This document shows positions 22,887-32,023 of a stretch of DNA of 64,000 nt, one piece after another. The stretch lies in NCBI RefSeq assembly GCF_053078305.1, contig NZ_CP166879.1, one strand, 5' to 3'. Within the stretch, counting starts at the first letter, position 1; every line of letters begins with the position of its first letter. The position numbers were made by a program, and so were the translations under genes. The notes under the pieces are model-generated. The model was not told where the DNA came from, made no database searches, and was given only the letters and a program-made list of their open reading frames with translations.

Positions 22887-23951
22887 ATGTCACAGAACTG
22901 GATGAGACATTTCGAGCTGCAGCTTGTGGACGGGAACGGTCAGGGAATTGAGCTAAGTGATTTCAAAGTCACCTTTACGATCGACTGGTTCAACATCAGC
23001 AGCGCGTCCCGGGTAGGGACTATCAAAATTTATAACCTCTCGGCAGATACTGTGAACCGAATTACCGGGCAGGAGTTTTCGAAAGTGCGTCTGATTGCCG
23101 GTTACGACGGTATCGCGCCGGAGGTGTCAGCAAGCGACGTAGGGACCGTGCGGGGAGTTGACGCGGCGGACGTGGGCCAGAGAGATGGCCGCAACTACGG
23201 ACTGATTTTCAGCGGTGAAATTCGCTACTCGGTCACAGGAAAAGACAGTCCGGTTGATACCTACGTCCTGATTCAGGCAGCAGATACTGATCTGGCTTTT
23301 GCCACCAGTATAACCTCACAGACGCTGGCTGCCGGTTACACGGTCGCTGATGTGAACCGTGCGCTGATGAAAGACTTCGAAGCCAAAGGCGCGACCGAAG
23401 GCCTGACGCCTGAAATGCCTGCTACTGTATTCCCCCGGGGGCGGGTACTCTTTGGCATGACGCGGCATCTAATGGATAACGTAGCCGGACAATGTGGCGC
23501 AACATGGCAATTCGTGGACGGTCAGCGCCAGATGGTGGCGAATAACGAATATGTTCACGAAGCGATTGTGCTCAACAGCGCTACCGGGCTTATTGGCATG
23601 CCGCAGCAGACTATCGGTAACGGCGTAAACGTCCGCGCGCTTATTAATCCGAACATCCGGGTTAACGGGCTCATTCAGCTGGATCAGGCTTCCGTCTATC
23701 GTACCGCGTTGTCGAACAACGATATTGCGATGGCTGGTGGTCAGATCACCGACCAGAACACGGACGGAAATATCACGCTCAGCGGCACCACATCGCAGCC
23801 TGCCTGCATCGCAACGGATGGCGTTTATATTGTGCGCGGGATTATGTACACTGGCGACACAAGGGGCCAGGCGTGGTACATGGATATGATGTGTGAAGCG
23901 CGTGGCGCGGCGGATCTTGTTTCCTCATCAGCGAGGGAAAGAGGGCTTTAA
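22887..23951 (+). CDS. Baseplate hub protein (Mu gp44 / P2 gpD-like position)
   Basis: 354 aa. It lies after the tape-measure-proximal genes and before the spike gene. Confidence 0.55.
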   Translation: MSQNWMRHFELQLVDGNGQGIELSDFKVTFTIDWFNISSASRVGTIKIYNLSADTVNRITGQEFSKVRLIAGYDGIAPEVSASDVGTVRGVDAADVGQRDGRNYGLIFSGEIRYSVTGKDSPVDTYVLIQAADTDLAFATSITSQTLAAGYTVADVNRALMKDFEAKGATEGLTPEMPATVFPRGRVLFGMTRHLMDNVAGQCGATWQFVDGQRQMVANNEYVHEAIVLNSATGLIGMPQQTIGNGVNVRALINPNIRVNGLIQLDQASVYRTALSNNDIAMAGGQITDQNTDGNITLSGTTSQPACIATDGVYIVRGIMYTGDTRGQAWYMDMMCEARGAADLVSSSARERGL

Positions 23952-24286
23952 TGAAACGGTTATGTTTGGCGTTAGTTATGATGGTTACTGCTCCGGCGAT
24001 GGCTGCAATTCAGTGCGGCAACTACACGATGACCGGTGACGGAATGACTGTTATTAACGGTGAAACTGTCACATCACAGAAGATAAAATTTCTGGGAAAA
24101 GATGGTGACTATTCAAACATGAAAATGGACATGGGCCTGATGCCTTCCCGTGATGGTAACAATTACGGCTTTGAGTTTGTGAAACGTAACGGAAAAGCTT
24201 TCCTGAACGTCCAGCTGCTGCAGAACAGCATGGACGCGCCGAAAATCATTGGATCTTTCCCGTGTAAAAAAGTGAGCAGCAAGTGA
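23951..24286 (+). CDS. Secreted small protein, 111 aa (cargo gene, function unknown)
   Basis: Sec signal peptide MKRLCLALVMMVTAPAMA|A. The mature part is beta-rich with two Cys. GC is lower than in the flanking genes. It is inserted between the hub and spike genes. Confidence 0.6.
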   Translation: MKRLCLALVMMVTAPAMAAIQCGNYTMTGDGMTVINGETVTSQKIKFLGKDGDYSNMKMDMGLMPSRDGNNYGFEFVKRNGKAFLNVQLLQNSMDAPKIIGSFPCKKVSSK

Positions 24287-24795
24287 CAGTTGATGATGAT
24301 CCTTTGAATTCATTTCAAGACCCTGACTTTCAGGAACTTCTCGGCGGAATTGATATTACTCTTGTTATAAGGTTTTTTAATTATTTTTCGCGTTTCGAAT
24401 ATGCGTTAAAAAGAATTAATTTCAAAAAAACTGATCGTAGAAATTATCTAATCGGTGCTGACTGGAGCCGCTACGCTACTGATGATACGCGGCCTTTATA
24501 TCCTACTGGAAATAGAAATGTCGATAGGGCAGTTGAGTATCTATGTCAGCAACCTGTGAAGCAGCAGAGGCATGATTTTTCGTGGGAGGATAAACCTCCA
24601 ATCGAACCTCATTCTCTTGCTGAAGCATTAAAGCAGATCCCGTATATAAGAAATAATCTCTTTCACGGCGGGAAGTATTTACGTCCCGACCCCGTTCGTG
24701 ATGAAAAGTTATTGAAATACTCTATTTATTTGATGCAGTTGTGTTTGATAACTGATAATCAGCTTTCTGAATACTTTAATACTATCCACCGATAG
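24283..24795 (+). CDS. HEPN-motif protein, 170 aa (cargo gene; candidate RNase/abortive-infection effector)
   Basis: IPYIRNNLFHGGK contains R-N-x-x-x-H, the HEPN Rx4-6H signature. The gene is AT-rich (14 G+C in 24361-24420). It uses a GTG start overlapping the upstream stop, so the start is uncertain. A strong terminator follows. Confidence 0.5.
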   Translation: MTVDDDPLNSFQDPDFQELLGGIDITLVIRFFNYFSRFEYALKRINFKKTDRRNYLIGADWSRYATDDTRPLYPTGNRNVDRAVEYLCQQPVKQQRHDFSWEDKPPIEPHSLAEALKQIPYIRNNLFHGGKYLRPDPVRDEKLLKYSIYLMQLCLITDNQLSEYFNTIHR

Positions 24796-24813
24796 TCATT
24801 CTTCATGAGATAA

Positions 24814-27837: not shown

Positions 27838-28292
27838 TGGCGAAAAATGACTTTAAAGCGTTTGCAACGGATCGAAATGCCAATGTTATATCGCAGGAGG
27901 AATGGGAAGCGTTGCCCGCGCTTTTATCCGGATTTACAGCAGGGAAAGCCTCCAGTGCGCAAGTCAATAAGGTTATTCGGCAGGTCAGCTTTATTGCTGC
28001 AGCTCTGGCCCAGTTTGTAAGTGATAAAACGCAACGGGATGTGCTTGATAATGGTGATCTGCCCGGTTTTGTTGAATTGCTGGGATCGGGGTTTGCTGTT
28101 GAATACCTGAGCCGCAAGAATCCGTTTGGTGATATCAAATCGGATGGCACGGTGAAAACGGCTCTCGAAAACCTTGGTTTGGGAGAAGAGCACAGCGTTA
28201 AGCCGGGTTGTTTCTGCCTGCGTCAGCTTCCGCCCGGCCTGCAATTTCAGCTGAATCAGACTAATGGAAGCCATAGCCGCATCAATCAGTGA
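27837..28292 (+). CDS. Tail fibre, constant N-terminal part (Sc). In this orientation it is not joined to a receptor-binding domain.
   Basis: ATG 27837 overlaps the upstream stop (TGATG). The sequence is sensible up to ...KTALENLGLGE at the crossover site (28162-28187). It then reads antisense tfa DNA (EHSVKPGCFCLRQLPPGLQF...) to a stop at 28292. Confidence 0.65.
   Translation: MAKNDFKAFATDRNANVISQEEWEALPALLSGFTAGKASSAQVNKVIRQVSFIAAALAQFVSDKTQRDVLDNGDLPGFVELLGSGFAVEYLSRKNPFGDIKSDGTVKTALENLGLGEEHSVKPGCFCLRQLPPGLQFQLNQTNGSHSRINQ
28162..28187. repeat. Invertase crossover site, left (hix/gix/pix-like, 26 bp)
   Basis: CTCTCGAAAACC-TT-GGTTTGGGAGAA. Its reverse complement shares TTCTCCCAAACCAA with the right site. 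It resembles hix TTCTTGAAAACCAAGGTTTTTGATAA. Confidence 0.7.
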
Positions 28293-28715
28293 CTGGCGCC
28301 GTACTTCTGCCGCGTCTACTGCGGCGTTATGCTGTGCCTCAGTGTCGGTCACCCATTTCTCACCATCCCATTTATCGTATGACGTTAACGGGGCGATAGT
28401 GGTTGTATTTTCAGGGTAATCACCCGGAACTGTGATTTCTTTTGATTCTCCTGTTTCGGTGCTATAGACGATTTCACCGCGATGGTCTGGCACATATTCC
28501 CATGAGTTAAAATCTGCAGAACGGCAAATTGCATAACCAGCTTTATATGAGCCAGGAGCATCTAAACAGGAACATGCCGGGATACCGACACCCACAGCAA
28601 GATATTCAGTTGATGTGGAAATATATTCCCGTGTTTCACCATCATAATTATAAACGGTAATGTCTCCGGCCTTTGTGGCGATGAGTTCATTATTTAATAC
28701 AGCTTTACTTATCAT
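28188..28715 (-). CDS. Tail fibre assembly protein (Tfa/U-like), native C-terminus missing
   Basis: MISKAVLNNELIATKAGDITVYNYDGE...KLTQAETTRLNAVL is Tfa-like. The usual last ~25 residues (xYxxxVxxVDxSxAPDIxWP) are absent. The ORF instead runs through the crossover site into antisense fibre DNA down to 27924. Confidence 0.6.
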
Positions 28716-29183
28716 GCAGCCCTCACAATATAATTAAAGGCGATGTTACGGGAGCGGGTTTCAGATGCTGTGCGAACTGAGCGAGATGCGTCGAATGTCC
28801 AGTTATAAGCGCCATAACCCTCAATAATTTCGGCTTCCTTTAGACCTGTAGATAATACTTGCCCATGTTGACTAAATGGCCCTGAACTAAGTACGTCTCT
28901 AAAAAGCTGGGTACGCCCAAAAGAACCAACAATATTCTGAATTGCATCATTCTGTGCAGATAATAAGTTACGACCAGAGTCAATCCCGCGCCCATCATCC
29001 CAGCCACGAATAAATTCACCGCGTAAATCTGGTAATTTTAATGTTGGGTAAGCCTTTGCCAGATTTGGGTACTTTTCAGAAGAAAATACTGCTCCGTTAC
29101 ATTTTAGCCACCCCATTGGCGGAGTGGCTGAAGGCCACGGAACAGGCACACCAACCGGTAATGCAGAGCCTTCTCCCAAACCA
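28712..29183 (-). CDS. Tail fibre variable C-terminal cassette (tail-collar, receptor-binding), with no start of its own
   Basis: GLGEGSALPVGVPVPWPSATPPMGWLKCNGAVFSSEKYPNLAKAYP...LPDLRGEFIRGWDDGRG is the phage tail-collar motif. It begins inside the right crossover site in the same GLGE frame as Sc, so inversion would fuse it to Sc. Confidence 0.7.
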
Positions 29184-29250: not shown

Positions 29251-29805
29251 ATGCTTATTGGCTATGTACGCGTATCAACAAATGACCAGAATACCGATCT
29301 ACAACGTAATGCGTTGAACTGTGCAGGATGCGAGCTGATTTTTGAAGACAAGATAAGCGGTACAAAGTCCGAAAGGCCGGGACTGAAAAAACTGCTCAGG
29401 ACATTATCGGCAGGTGACACTCTGGTTGTCTGGAAGCTGGATCGGCTGGGGCGTAGTATGCGGCATCTGGTCATTCTGGTTGAGGAGTTGCGCGAACGTG
29501 GCGTTAATTTTCGCAGCCTGACGGATGCTATTGATACCAGCACACCGATGGGGCGTTTTTTCTTTCATGTGATGGGGGCCCTGGCTGAAATGGAACGAGA
29601 ACTGATTGTTGAACGAACAAAAGCTGGACTGGAAGCTGCTCGCGCACAGGGACGAATTGGTGGACGTCGTCCCAAACTTACACCAGAACAATGGGCGCAG
29701 GCCGGGCGACTAATTGCATCAGGAGTTCCTCGCCAGAAGGTGGCGATCATTTATGATGTTGGCGTATCGACTTTGTATAAGAAGTTTCCGGTCGGAGATA
29801 AATGA
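29251..29805 (+). CDS. Serine DNA invertase (Gin/Pin/Cin/Hin family)
   Basis: The sequence MLIGYVRVSTNDQNTDLQRNAL...GRRPKL... ending in a C-terminal HTH matches the family, including the catalytic Ser in YVRVSTNDQ. GGGAG lies upstream of ATG 29251. Confidence 0.9.
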   Translation: MLIGYVRVSTNDQNTDLQRNALNCAGCELIFEDKISGTKSERPGLKKLLRTLSAGDTLVVWKLDRLGRSMRHLVILVEELRERGVNFRSLTDAIDTSTPMGRFFFHVMGALAEMERELIVERTKAGLEAARAQGRIGGRRPKLTPEQWAQAGRLIASGVPRQKVAIIYDVGVSTLYKKFPVGDK

Positions 29806-29885
29806 AACCGTAGCACGTCGTATGCAAGAACGTGCCACGGCTGGCTGATAAGCTTGTAAAAATATTGAACAGGGAGTGGAGCATT

Positions 29886-30533
29886 CTATGAAGCTAATTT
29901 GTTTAATTTCATTTGTAGTGACTTTACTTCTTGGTCGATAATGTCGAATCCCTTATTGACAGCATCTCTTAGCTCTGCATCAATATTTTTTATCCCTTGA
30001 GCATAATCTACCATTATATTTATTTTTGCATCATGTAATCTCTTATACATGGTTTTATTTTTGTTATTGTCTGCCATGCCAATAAGGATTTTTTCATAAT
30101 CCTCAATGAGTTTGTTGTTTCCTTTAAATGATTGTATTAATGAGCGTGAATATGTGTATATGTTAATTATTGAGTCTCTAGCAGAATCATTTAGTTTTGC
30201 AATGACATTCGCATTTTGCTCATAGAATGTGAAATTATCATCCCCTACAGGGAATGTGAGAATCAACATTTGTCCCGGTTTTATATTATCAATGTGTGTT
30301 TTCATCCTTTTATTATATAAATTGATTAGGGTGAAAACTTCTCCCTTAACTCCTTTTAATACTGAAAGTTGTAATTCAAGGGATTCTCTTTCTGTCTCTA
30401 CTTTAGACAGCTTAGCTTGTTGGGTAACTCCTTTTAGGGTAAACCATCCGCCAATAAGAGTACCAACTAGAGCTGTGAGGGAGGAGGATAACCATCCAGG
30501 TATGCTATTTAAAAGATTACTAAATTCACTCAT
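29886..30533 (-). CDS. Membrane-anchored coiled-coil protein, 215 aa (cargo, function unknown)
   Basis: N-terminal hydrophobic helix LSSSLTALVGTLIGGWFTL, then QQAKLSKVETERESLELQLSVLKG, then an Asn/Lys-rich C-terminal domain. Very low GC (14 G+C in 30001-30060). Confidence 0.6.
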   Translation of the reverse strand: MSEFSNLLNSIPGWLSSSLTALVGTLIGGWFTLKGVTQQAKLSKVETERESLELQLSVLKGVKGEVFTLINLYNKRMKTHIDNIKPGQMLILTFPVGDDNFTFYEQNANVIAKLNDSARDSIINIYTYSRSLIQSFKGNNKLIEDYEKILIGMADNNKNKTMYKRLHDAKINIMVDYAQGIKNIDAELRDAVNKGFDIIDQEVKSLQMKLNKLAS

Positions 30534-30593
30534 TATAAGTACTCGCTAATATTGAACGATATATATATATCAAATTATTATAAAACTCGTCAG

Positions 30594-30935
30594 CTACTGG
30601 AGAAGGCTACCTGAACTTCGATCTATTCCTGCATCCATATAGTTGATGGTCTTCTGGAGCTCTTCGATTAGGGCAACAGCTTTTGCTCGAGAAATGCATA
30701 TTAGTTGATCCGGAAATTCTTGTAAGGGCCAGTTTGGTATACAGGCCATGTTATCAATGAAGGATGCAGACAAGTAAACTTCATTGGTAACCAGAGAATA
30801 GCTTACCTCAAAATTGGTGAGTTCCGGCAAACTGCTAACGTTTGACTCTTTTCTGCGCATAATATTATCCATGACTGTAATTATGTACAGGTGATGGTCT
30901 TCAATTTCGAAGAGGGAGTCAAGGGGGAGTCTCAA
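30594..30935 (-). CDS. Small acidic protein, 92-113 aa (cargo, function unknown)
   Basis: Low-GC ORF upstream of, and co-oriented with, the 215-aa gene. The start is ambiguous (TTG 30935 or ATG 30872), and neither has a good SD. Confidence 0.45.
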   Translation of the reverse strand: MRLPLDSLFEIEDHHLYIITVMDNIMRRKESNVSSLPELTNFEVSYSLVTNEVYLSASFIDNMACIPNWPLQEFPDQLICISRAKAVALIEELQKTINYMDAGIDRSSGSLLQ

Positions 30936-31062
30936 ATGAACCGTTATAGAAAAAGGGGGGGGATCTTTGTGTTGCTGAACTTATGCAAAATTTTTTTGCA
31001 CCATAAATCCAACAACACATTCAATAACACATTGCTGTATCACTATGAAAATAAATGTGTTT

Positions 31063-31119
31063 TTATTTGATTTCACACATATCACAATTGATGCATTTTT
31101 TAGTGATTAACAGCGCCAT
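31063..31119 (-). pseudogene. yfhL: 5' fragment of ferredoxin gene yfhL, truncated by the prophage junction
   Basis: Hand translation gives [18 protein letters not shown]-stop. The first 16 residues match my memory of K-12 YfhL ([24 protein letters not shown]...) and the CxxCxxC start of a 4Fe-4S motif. The frame then diverges into AT-rich phage DNA. Confidence 0.6.
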
Positions 31120-31174
31120 AAGGAAACTCTCAAAACAACACAAACCGGGCGGGCATTATACGCGCATTCTTTAC

Positions 31175-32023
31175 TCAGACCAGTTTTTTCACCAGCGCTT
31201 CACTATGACGAATACGTTCTGGTGCCAGTTCCAGATCCTGCTGAATCAGCGCAATGAACAGCAAATCCGTTAACATTCCCTGCGCGTGACAAGCAGAGAT
31301 TGAAGCACTGTTTGTCGCTTGTTCTTCGGCAATGGTATACAGGCAATGAGAAGCACGCTGTTGCAGGGCATTGGGAGTAAAGCCGGTAATCGCCAGCACT
31401 TTTCCGCCCACTCGCAGCATCTCATCTGCCGCCAGGTTTAACTCGCGTCGTACACCGGTGTAAGAAATGGCTAATAACAGATCGTCAGGGGACGACGCCT
31501 GTACGGTAGCGAGTAGCGCATGCATATCGCGCACTGCGGCAGCATTGAAGCCAATCTTCATCAGCTTCCAGGCAAAGTTTTGCGCCACCAGACCCGAAGC
31601 GCCAATACCGGTCAGAATTATCCGCCGCGCAGAGCGCAACATTGTTACGCATTCATGCAGTTTCTCTTCACTATTAACGTTTAGCGTTGCGTACATAGCG
31701 GCAGTATTTTCTTTAATCAGTTTTTCGCCGACCAGCCGTAACGGATCATCACCGCGGATTTGGTTATGAATGGGCACGGAGGGCGATTCCGGCTGGCTTG
31801 CCAGCGCTTCACTCAACGCCAACTTAAGCGCCGGAAAACCTTTATAGCCGAGTTTTTGCGCGAACTTCACGACGCTGGACTGACTGACTCCGGCTTCGTT
31901 GGCCAGTTGCTGAGAGCTTAAATGGCGCGCCGTATCAGGTTGTAGCAGCAGATAATCCGCCAGTTTTTTATCACTCTGGGCAAGCCCCTGGTAACGCTGA
32001 CGGATACGAAGTAAGCCGTTCAT
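31175..32023 (-). CDS. yfhH: RpiR/MurR-family transcriptional regulator (HTH plus SIS domain)
   Basis: 282 aa from MNGLLRIRQRYQGLAQSDKKLADYLL. This matches K-12 YfhH in size and synteny. The track start at 32095 is too long. Confidence 0.9.
   Translation of the reverse strand: MNGLLRIRQRYQGLAQSDKKLADYLLLQPDTARHLSSQQLANEAGVSQSSVVKFAQKLGYKGFPALKLALSEALASQPESPSVPIHNQIRGDDPLRLVGEKLIKENTAAMYATLNVNSEEKLHECVTMLRSARRIILTGIGASGLVAQNFAWKLMKIGFNAAAVRDMHALLATVQASSPDDLLLAISYTGVRRELNLAADEMLRVGGKVLAITGFTPNALQQRASHCLYTIAEEQATNSASISACHAQGMLTDLLFIALIQQDLELAPERIRHSEALVKKLV

Follow-up and report, generated by a model that had tools for sequence, protein, structure and literature searches.

A swappable single-gene cargo at the right end of a SEN34-like Escherichia coli prophage encodes a predicted bitopic membrane protein with a plausible role in phage exclusion

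Two described prophage proteins offer precedents for the one considered here. SieA of P22 is a prophage-expressed inner-membrane protein of 162–164 amino acids (aa) with three predicted transmembrane (TM) helices; it acts on the ejection-protein conduit, is alone necessary and sufficient for exclusion, and occurs as several very divergent sequence types (PMC10883804). PdpSau of Staphylococcus aureus is encoded by a lone accessory gene in a variable slot at the end of Sa2-type prophages, where it alternates with other cargo (the PVL toxin genes), and it combines an N-terminal membrane helix with a cytoplasmic C-terminal domain; acting alone, it causes membrane depolarisation and abortive infection (PMC10127798). 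Here we analyse the right end of a 42-kb prophage in an E. coli chromosome (NCBI RefSeq assembly GCF_053078305.1, contig NZ_CP166879.1), using a stretch of 64,000 nucleotides, hereafter the window, in which an AT-rich gene for a 215-aa protein lies next to a gene for an 88-aa protein. The 215-aa gene and its flanking DNA have the anatomy of a moron and form one swappable single-gene cargo in a slot that is mapped to the base. Our overall reading, that this cargo sits beside a fixed backbone gene and that its product acts alone in the lysogen against other phages, we regard as evenly balanced between right and wrong.

The prophage is SEN34-like, has a myovirus tail and lies between yfhL and yfhH; the first base of the window falls ~9 kb inside it. 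RefSeq genomes that match the window are 99.2–99.8% identical to it across 29700–31200, and the gene order annotated there leads from lambda-like early genes and a tail and baseplate of the myovirus type, through an invertible tail-fibre segment and pinE, to a single "hypothetical protein" and yfhH. Among sequenced phages, three vB_EcoM isolates of E. coli and the Salmonella phage SEN34 (Brunovirus) come closest. The right end runs from the invertible tail-fibre segment through pinE, the cargo slot, the 88-aa backbone gene and the att arm to an 18-bp core (Table 1). A preliminary description of this DNA had reported two minus-strand open reading frames (ORFs), convergent with the invertase gene, as the last coding DNA before attR, and this holds in each respect. 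The ORFs lie where it placed them (215 aa, and 113 aa at the maximal extent of the smaller), pinE ends facing them at 29805, and the match of empty-site E. coli genomes to the window starts again at 31072.

Both ORFs are real genes rather than chance frames, because both evolve under purifying selection: the ratio of non-synonymous to synonymous substitution rates (dN/dS) has a median of 0.09 over 83 pairs of the small ORF and of 0.12 in the family of the 215-aa protein. The contrary idea, that one or both are non-functional remnants or annotation noise, could appeal to the PGAP annotation, which leaves 30594–30935 uncalled in the E. coli RefSeq entries NC_013353 and NZ_CP180607, and to truncated copies of the 215-aa gene (~139–142 aa) in some E. 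coli. The dN/dS values speak against it, as do lengths kept at 87–88 aa and 213–223 aa across genera, confident structure models for both proteins and a PHROG match of the small ORF at E 1e-43; it has next to no probability left and is refuted for the intact alleles in the window.

The cargo insert sits exactly between the stop codon of pinE and the small ORF. On its left, 90% DNA identity to stfE'-pinE of the K-12 prophage e14 ends one base past the pinE stop, at 29806; on its right, homology to prophages with alternative cargo restarts at 30579, 15 bp past the stop codon of the small ORF. The module is thus recognisable as a moron by its insertion between genes that are adjacent in related phages, by its distinct base composition (GC content 0.33, or 0.329 to three decimals, for the cargo gene vs 0.51 for the prophage) and by a terminator-like hairpin of its own. 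The preliminary description had assigned a very low GC content to the two ORFs together. A trough of 0.30–0.34 over 29850–30600, compared with ~0.5 on either side, agrees with this, and its count of 14 G+C in 30001–30060 was exact, but the small ORF, at 0.427, is not far below its flanks.

That the prophage end might be a variable slot had also been suggested, and comparison of related prophages bears this out. In a survey of 36 ends of SEN34-like prophages (IMG/VR plus the window), the slot is filled by the 215-aa gene in 11, by a gene for an uncharacterised 281-aa protein in 6, by genes for an 84-aa protein and a 240-aa lipoprotein in 6, by an O-antigen-type acyltransferase (Acyl_transf_3) in two (SEN34 and one other), by a hexapeptide acetyltransferase with an HtrL_YibB protein in two, by an IS3 element in one and by a different arrangement in one. 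The remaining seven ends have an empty slot, with only 0–9 bp from the invertase to the small ORF. At least seven contents, or none, are therefore found beside one and the same small ORF, and in e14 the slot holds mcrA. Among complete E. coli genomes, 122 have the small-ORF end and 79 of these also have the 215-aa gene. In the alternative E. coli allele, similarity to the window ends at 29511 and restarts at 30579, with the 281-aa gene in between and pinE truncated; as the insertion took out the 3' half of pinE, these prophages should lack tail-fibre inversion.

The alternative cargos deserve notice in their own right. The 281-aa protein (WP_001039127.1) occurs in ~43 E. coli genomes and in the three sequenced vB_EcoM phages, and has no Pfam or PADLOC match. 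The genes for the 84-aa and 240-aa proteins, neither of which matches any family, lie ~20–1040 bp past the small ORF; the larger protein has a lipobox (MIGC), and a prophage lipoprotein in this position is a candidate receptor-blocking exclusion factor. None of the alternative slot cargos has a PADLOC match. In some Salmonella ends, a gene for a PagK-like secreted virulence protein follows just beyond the 215-aa gene.

The preliminary description had proposed that the two adjacent genes form a system of a small cytosolic partner and a membrane effector, that is, a two-gene abortive-infection or toxin–antitoxin-like system. The genes do share an orientation, 60 bp separate them and no terminator is called in between (a scan of the minus strand from 31250 to 29850 called none), and they occur together in both E. 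coli and Salmonella-type backbones, in 11 of the 36 ends, always with a spacing of ~60 bp. However, the small ORF is constant whatever the cargo and is present when the slot is empty, and the recombination junction at 30578/30579 falls between the two genes. Moreover, when we compared the ORFs within 2 kb of the 215-aa gene and its homologues in 18 distinct flanking contexts, the small ORF was absent from 16 and adjacent only in the two contexts that are SEN34-like prophages, so that the pair is not conserved as a pair, an outcome that the preliminary description had itself named as refuting its proposal. The two families also differ in range: that of the small ORF has members only in E. coli, Salmonella and Citrobacter (61 clusters), whereas that of the 215-aa protein extends far wider. 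These comparative data contradict a two-gene system, which we consider very improbable and reject.

The small ORF is instead the fixed last gene of this prophage type, with a backbone role separate from the cargo. It can be read from a TTG (113 aa), from an ATG at 30869 (92 aa) or from an ATG at 30860 (88 aa). The last is the best-supported start on sequence grounds, because this is where the PHROG profile and every homologue from Salmonella and Citrobacter start. The match is to phrog_17793 (E 1.3e-43; residues 26–113, 88 of 91 profile positions). At the DNA level the ORF is 79% identical to SEN34_31, which sits between cargo and integrase in the circular SEN34 genome, and its homologues are 87–88 aa long. 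The protein is acidic, as had been described, with an isoelectric point (pI) of 4.5; it is predicted to adopt a β-β-β-α fold and has no Pfam match at E ≤ 0.01 and none in NCBIfam. Comparison with the COMM domain gives 8–20% identity, a fold-level resemblance of a small domain that implies no function.

Longer forms of the small ORF (113–145 aa) were rejected, as their extensions vary by frame between assemblies and arise from homopolymer indels; the frame-dependent N-terminal extensions of 140–145 aa in other assemblies are non-conserved and stem from indels in the G tract upstream of the start. Among near-identical E. coli prophages this tract measures 7 (L022), 8 (window, L001 and L004) or 9 nucleotides (L020), and it is not present in Salmonella-type ends. 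Its variation could be slipped-strand noise or could reflect a phase-variable element acting on expression of the small ORF.

Judged by sequence comparison, the 215-aa protein belongs to a large, unnamed and widespread family of mobile-element cargo that travels alone, with no partner gene conserved. There are 216 close homologues across the Enterobacterales (Dickeya, Pectobacterium, Yersinia, Serratia, Enterobacter, Klebsiella, Citrobacter, Cronobacter, Pantoea, Providencia, Morganella, Proteus and Salmonella), 60–74% identical and 213–223 aa long, every one of them named "hypothetical protein". A profile search of 1.84 billion representatives yielded 665 clusters (50% identity) at E ≤ 1e-3 and 253 at E ≤ 1e-10, nearly all matches being full-length at 190–220 aa. 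The genes of the family have a GC content of 0.31–0.37 while their host loci span 0.36–0.58. Pfam, NCBIfam and PADLOC return no match to the 215-aa protein or to any family member tested, PHROGs v4 none to the protein at E ≤ 0.1 (3 of 43 superfamily members weakly match an unannotated PHROG), and a PDB profile search no relative at E < 0.1; literature searched by accession and locus tag holds no paper on it.

Only integrases and one satellite regulatory protein recur as neighbour families in at least three of the 18 contexts, and the typical site of the gene is beside an integrase or att site. In a lambdoid prophage of Providencia, the homologue stands directly after genes for a cI-like repressor and an HSDR_N protein, on the same strand and before the early-left genes; in Citrobacter and Proteus prophages it is the last gene before an att site in icd. 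Homologues in Klebsiella, Pantoea and a metagenome (48–57% identity) lie in the accessory region beside the integrase of small capsid-encoding, satellite-like elements. In Dickeya the gene occurs in a region resembling an integrative and conjugative element, with CcdAB and a coupling protein, in Salmonella it stands between a DUF927 protein and resolvase upstream and a phage portal gene downstream, in Klebsiella grimontii it is found on an integrase-bearing island, and in Enterobacter in an islet beside HigBA. Relatives at 31% identity are carried by 29 plasmids, most of them ~110 kb and non-mobilisable; the two examined carry phage genes. The satellite-like elements encode a Phage_cap_E capsid protein and HTH_36/DUF6945 regulators, and these small integrase-bearing elements look like capsid-forming phage satellites; those of Klebsiella have an ORF of 140–142 aa 36 bp downstream of the homologue. 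In two related viral contigs (L064 and L071), the homologue has the same gene neighbourhood but seems to be turned round relative to its flanking genes, which would accord with a self-contained module able to insert or invert on its own.

This distribution bears on a further explanation, namely that the 215-aa protein serves the element itself, as a membrane-tethered regulator or sequestering factor, in entry exclusion or addiction, or as a modulator of division or the membrane during induction. Integrative and extrachromosomal elements of every kind carry the gene, often beside an integrase, and toxin–antitoxin modules lie within a few kb in several contexts. Bitopic proteins with an outside N-terminus, an inside C-terminus and cytoplasmic helical domains include scaffold and regulator proteins, which also counts in favour of such a role. 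On the other hand, the gene is missing from many near-identical prophages (79 vs 122 genomes) and the slot is empty in seven related ends, so the gene is dispensable for the life cycle of the element; in addition, it moves as a lone gene between unrelated types of element. A service to the element is, in our judgement, distinctly improbable.

The 215-aa protein is basic (pI 8.9) and, as previously described, has a single TM segment, with hydrophobic residues 15–33 and no second such stretch. Lysine plus arginine residues (K+R) within 15 residues of the TM segment average 0.1–0.2 on the N-terminal side and 3.2–4.0 on the C-terminal side across 82 family members, and the C-terminal flank is the richer in 80 of the 82 sequences. 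Because of this K+R-rich C flank, the positive-inside rule predicts an N-out/C-in topology with a short periplasmic N-terminus and a cytoplasmic bundle. The AlphaFold2 model (39-sequence alignment; predicted local distance difference test score 83.5, predicted template modelling score 0.70) shows a helix that runs from the TM segment to residue 82, a structured loop at 83–115, and long helices at 116–154 and 160–214. The protein is thus predicted to be a membrane-tethered cytoplasmic four-helix bundle of ~180 residues, with ~14 residues outside. The preliminary description had read the same region as a coiled coil followed by an Asn/Lys-rich domain. The composition stands, at 8.8% Asn and 9.8% Lys, but the coiled coil and separate domain are replaced in the model by a continuous stalk helix leading into the four-helix bundle.

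Conservation is concentrated in the membrane helix and in the bundle. On one face of the TM helix, A21, G24, G28 and G29 are invariant in the close family, and G24 and G29 are nearly invariant superfamily-wide; together they would form a GxxxG-like face of the kind typical of helix–helix association. In the remainder of the protein E65, F101 and Y177 are invariant in the superfamily and Y73, N107, I122, Y126 and N139–N140 nearly so. The conserved loop of the bundle reads FP(V/I)GDDNFTFYEQNA in the 215-aa protein, and its superfamily motif is aromatic and acidic, (F/Y)P..(D/Q).(N/D)(Y/F)FT.Y..N. No catalytic-looking constellation of residues is evident in the superfamily alignment.

Structural resemblance to four-helix-bundle sensors is generic, since de novo designed bundles score almost equally. 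Compared with the Tsr/Tar ligand-binding domain, 4HB_MCP and DUF3829, the bundle has 7–11% identity and no Pfam match. Moreover, chemoreceptor bundles are located in the periplasm, with a TM helix on either side, whereas that of the 215-aa protein is predicted to be cytoplasmic and follows a single one; by both the Pfam search and this arrangement, the protein falls outside 4HB_MCP. T4-type class III holins, Rz-type spanins, LemA and PspA were ruled out by the predicted N-out/C-in topology, by the lack of any Pfam or PHROG match and by a site away from the lysis genes.

Judged by position and architecture only, the 215-aa protein is most likely a lysogen-expressed, single-protein phage-exclusion or abortive-infection factor. 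A defence function is plausible by analogy, because P22 SieA (PMC10883804) and S. aureus PdpSau (PMC10127798) provide precedents. We hypothesise that the protein would be made in the lysogen and guard cell and prophage from other phages as a single-protein system. At the inner face of the membrane, the cytoplasmic bundle would recognise a component of the phage or a change brought about by infection; the TM helices might then self-associate, and genome entry would be blocked or the membrane depolarised in abortive infection. More tentatively, and with rather less than an even chance of being right, the protein may be the founding member of an unnamed single-protein anti-phage family (the 665 clusters, in Proteobacteria-type hosts), in which the bundle senses, the GxxxG anchor oligomerises and the elements trade a 0.7-kb module.

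Several results weigh against phage exclusion. No experimental or homology-based tie links the 215-aa protein to phage defence. PADLOC gave no match to either window protein at E ≤ 1; with PADLOC-DB v2.0.0, ten distant relatives of the 215-aa protein returned only sub-significant noise, and ten immediate neighbours from six contexts had no match. Looked up by three accessions and two sequence motifs, the protein is also absent from the supplementary tables of DefensePredictor. Within a few kb of the homologues there are toxin–antitoxin pairs, an HSDR_N-domain protein and an AbiTii gene, and no other defence-type genes. A tblastn search of 50,697 sequenced phage genomes found no relative, and as no sequenced phage genome encodes one, the evidence is limited to integrated elements.

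Expression is the weakest link in the case for exclusion. The cargo DNA of the window begins just 45 bp before the ATG of the 215-aa gene, and within these 45 bp there is a perfect TATAAT 36–41 nucleotides upstream of the ATG with a weak −35 element. A consensus promoter scan of the minus strand of the spacer passed no candidate, and no convincing sigma-70 promoter was found for the gene. Upstream of several homologues an AT-rich motif is found, which is missing from the window allele, and the spacer is not conserved elsewhere. Transcription could begin within the 60-bp spacer, from a weak AT-rich promoter, or reach the gene by read-through from the small ORF; alternatively, it could originate upstream of the small ORF or in a host yfhH-yfhL' transcript that enters the prophage at attR. 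At the other end of the gene, the likely terminator hairpin has an RNA folding energy of −22.5 kcal/mol (z = −2.5 vs shuffles), and the consensus terminator scan missed it because its U-tract is imperfect. A sub-threshold Rfam match to the Shigella small RNA CssrB at 29783–29839 on the plus strand (31.7 bits vs a gathering threshold of 76, E 3e-4), which overlaps the pinE stop, is probably just this hairpin.

The main rival to phage exclusion is non-defence lysogenic conversion, in which the 215-aa protein would be a fitness factor for envelope physiology, stress tolerance or host interaction, like lambda bor and lom or the pagK-type morons of Salmonella. The same slot also holds Acyl_transf_3, Hexapep and HtrL_YibB proteins, which are related to lipopolysaccharide (LPS), and a lipoprotein, and a PagK-like protein lies beyond it in some Salmonella; with LPS-modifying enzymes in the slot and such a neighbour, membership of the slot does not imply intracellular defence. 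The complete lack of PADLOC matches fits this rival, as does the absence from the 215-aa protein of a nuclease, NTPase or other typical defence domain. Against it, most of the protein is predicted to lie in the cytoplasm, a poor fit to a surface or virulence role, and its spread over plant-pathogenic, environmental and clinical Enterobacterales, satellites and plasmids speaks against niche-specific virulence. A homologue is also found directly downstream of cI, and the gene occupies the slot that holds mcrA in e14. On balance we judge lysogenic conversion unlikely.

If the 215-aa protein is indeed a phage-exclusion factor, it would represent a single-gene system that is compact (0.65 kb), very widespread and overlooked by current defence-finding tools. 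The gene is carried by clinically relevant E. coli (enterotoxigenic E. coli H10407 and O103:H2 12009), Salmonella, Klebsiella and Enterobacter, and for this reason it could, if the reading is true, affect the host range of phages used in therapy. If no phage phenotype is found, the gene is an ordinary prophage moron. In either case, the slot from pinE to att, mapped to the base, can be used to mine further cargo, the 281-aa and 84-aa plus 240-aa alleles being uncharacterised too.

The point of integration lies within the coding sequence of yfhL, after codon 16. At attL, a diverged version of the first 16 yfhL codons, supplied by the phage, restores an intact, slightly altered YfhL (MSLLITKR... 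rather than MALLITKK...) that now lies behind phage DNA, and the 18-codon yfhL' stub left at attR reads into the prophage, toward the small ORF and the 215-aa gene. The stretch rich in AACACA/TGTGTT covers ~110 bp from the G8 tract to the core, which fits an att arm, and the repeats are candidate binding sites for the integrase or accessory factors. Further inside the prophage, the tail-fibre and assembly segment beside pinE (28189–28762) is inverted relative to NZ_CP180607, to which the prophage is otherwise collinear, which fits an active host-range switch of the Pin type. Another variable, AT-rich stretch (23906–24811, GC content 0.38–0.43) lies in the block of baseplate genes and has no match at the corresponding place in NZ_CP180607. 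Encoded there are a 111-aa protein with a signal peptide (23951–24286) and a 170-aa protein (24283–24795), and the stretch may be a further moron slot.

Table 1. Coordinates of features at the right end of the prophage, in window positions.
Feature	Position	Strand	Remarks
pinE-type DNA invertase, left flank of cargo slot	29251..29805	+	named pinE in matching RefSeq annotations
Likely intrinsic terminator of the 215-aa gene	29806..29842	-	14-bp stem, 9-nt loop, then UUUCAUUUAU; 44 nt past the stop
Cargo module (moron), AT-rich, 772 bp	29807..30578	-	215-aa gene with 45 bp of DNA before it and the terminator hairpin after it
Gene for the 215-aa bitopic inner-membrane protein (predicted topology and model)	29886..30533	-	WP_044190168.1
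Intergenic spacer, 60 bp	30534..30593	-	cargo/backbone junction 30578/30579 inside
Gene for the 88-aa acidic backbone protein	30594..30860	-	phrog_17793 / SEN34 gp31 family; last gene before att; maximal ORF to 30935
G8 homopolymer (A5G8)	30953..30960		93 nt upstream of the small-ORF start
attR phage arm	30961..31071		AACACA/TGTGTT repeats (repeat search); between small ORF and core
yfhL' stub	31063..31119	-	native start and first 16 yfhL codons, then 2 phage codons and stop; translation MALLITKKCINCDMCEIK*
attR core	31072..31089		18 bp, TTCACACATATCACAATT; same sequence at attL (attL/attR alignment)

When the 215-aa protein is set beside known systems, its architecture is reminiscent of PdpSau: an N-terminal membrane helix, a cytoplasmic domain and a lone accessory gene of a prophage. 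The likeness is one of architecture only, and the host of PdpSau is Gram-positive, unlike that of the 215-aa protein. No homology to PdpSau emerged from the tblastn search of the 50,697 phage records, among which we assume PdpSau to be represented, no direct alignment having been made. Like SieA, the 215-aa protein is predicted to reside in the inner membrane, but a single TM helix and a cytoplasmic domain of ~180 residues take the place of the three TM helices, and the 215-aa protein has no sequence match to SieA or to the other exclusion families of PHROGs v4. On the lambda map, rexAB lies downstream of cI in a region that is transcribed in the lysogen, and the Providencia homologue after cI presumably occupies the corresponding position. 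RexAB, however, consists of two proteins, with a polytopic RexB, whereas the Providencia locus encodes one bitopic protein without homology to RexAB. The closest counterpart by position is mcrA of K-12 e14. McrA is a type IV methyl-directed restriction enzyme, read in the opposite direction and related to the 215-aa protein in neither sequence nor fold, and e14, which integrates in icd, has no 88-aa backbone gene; nevertheless, mcrA too is a single cargo gene between pinE and the prophage end, in the same slot.

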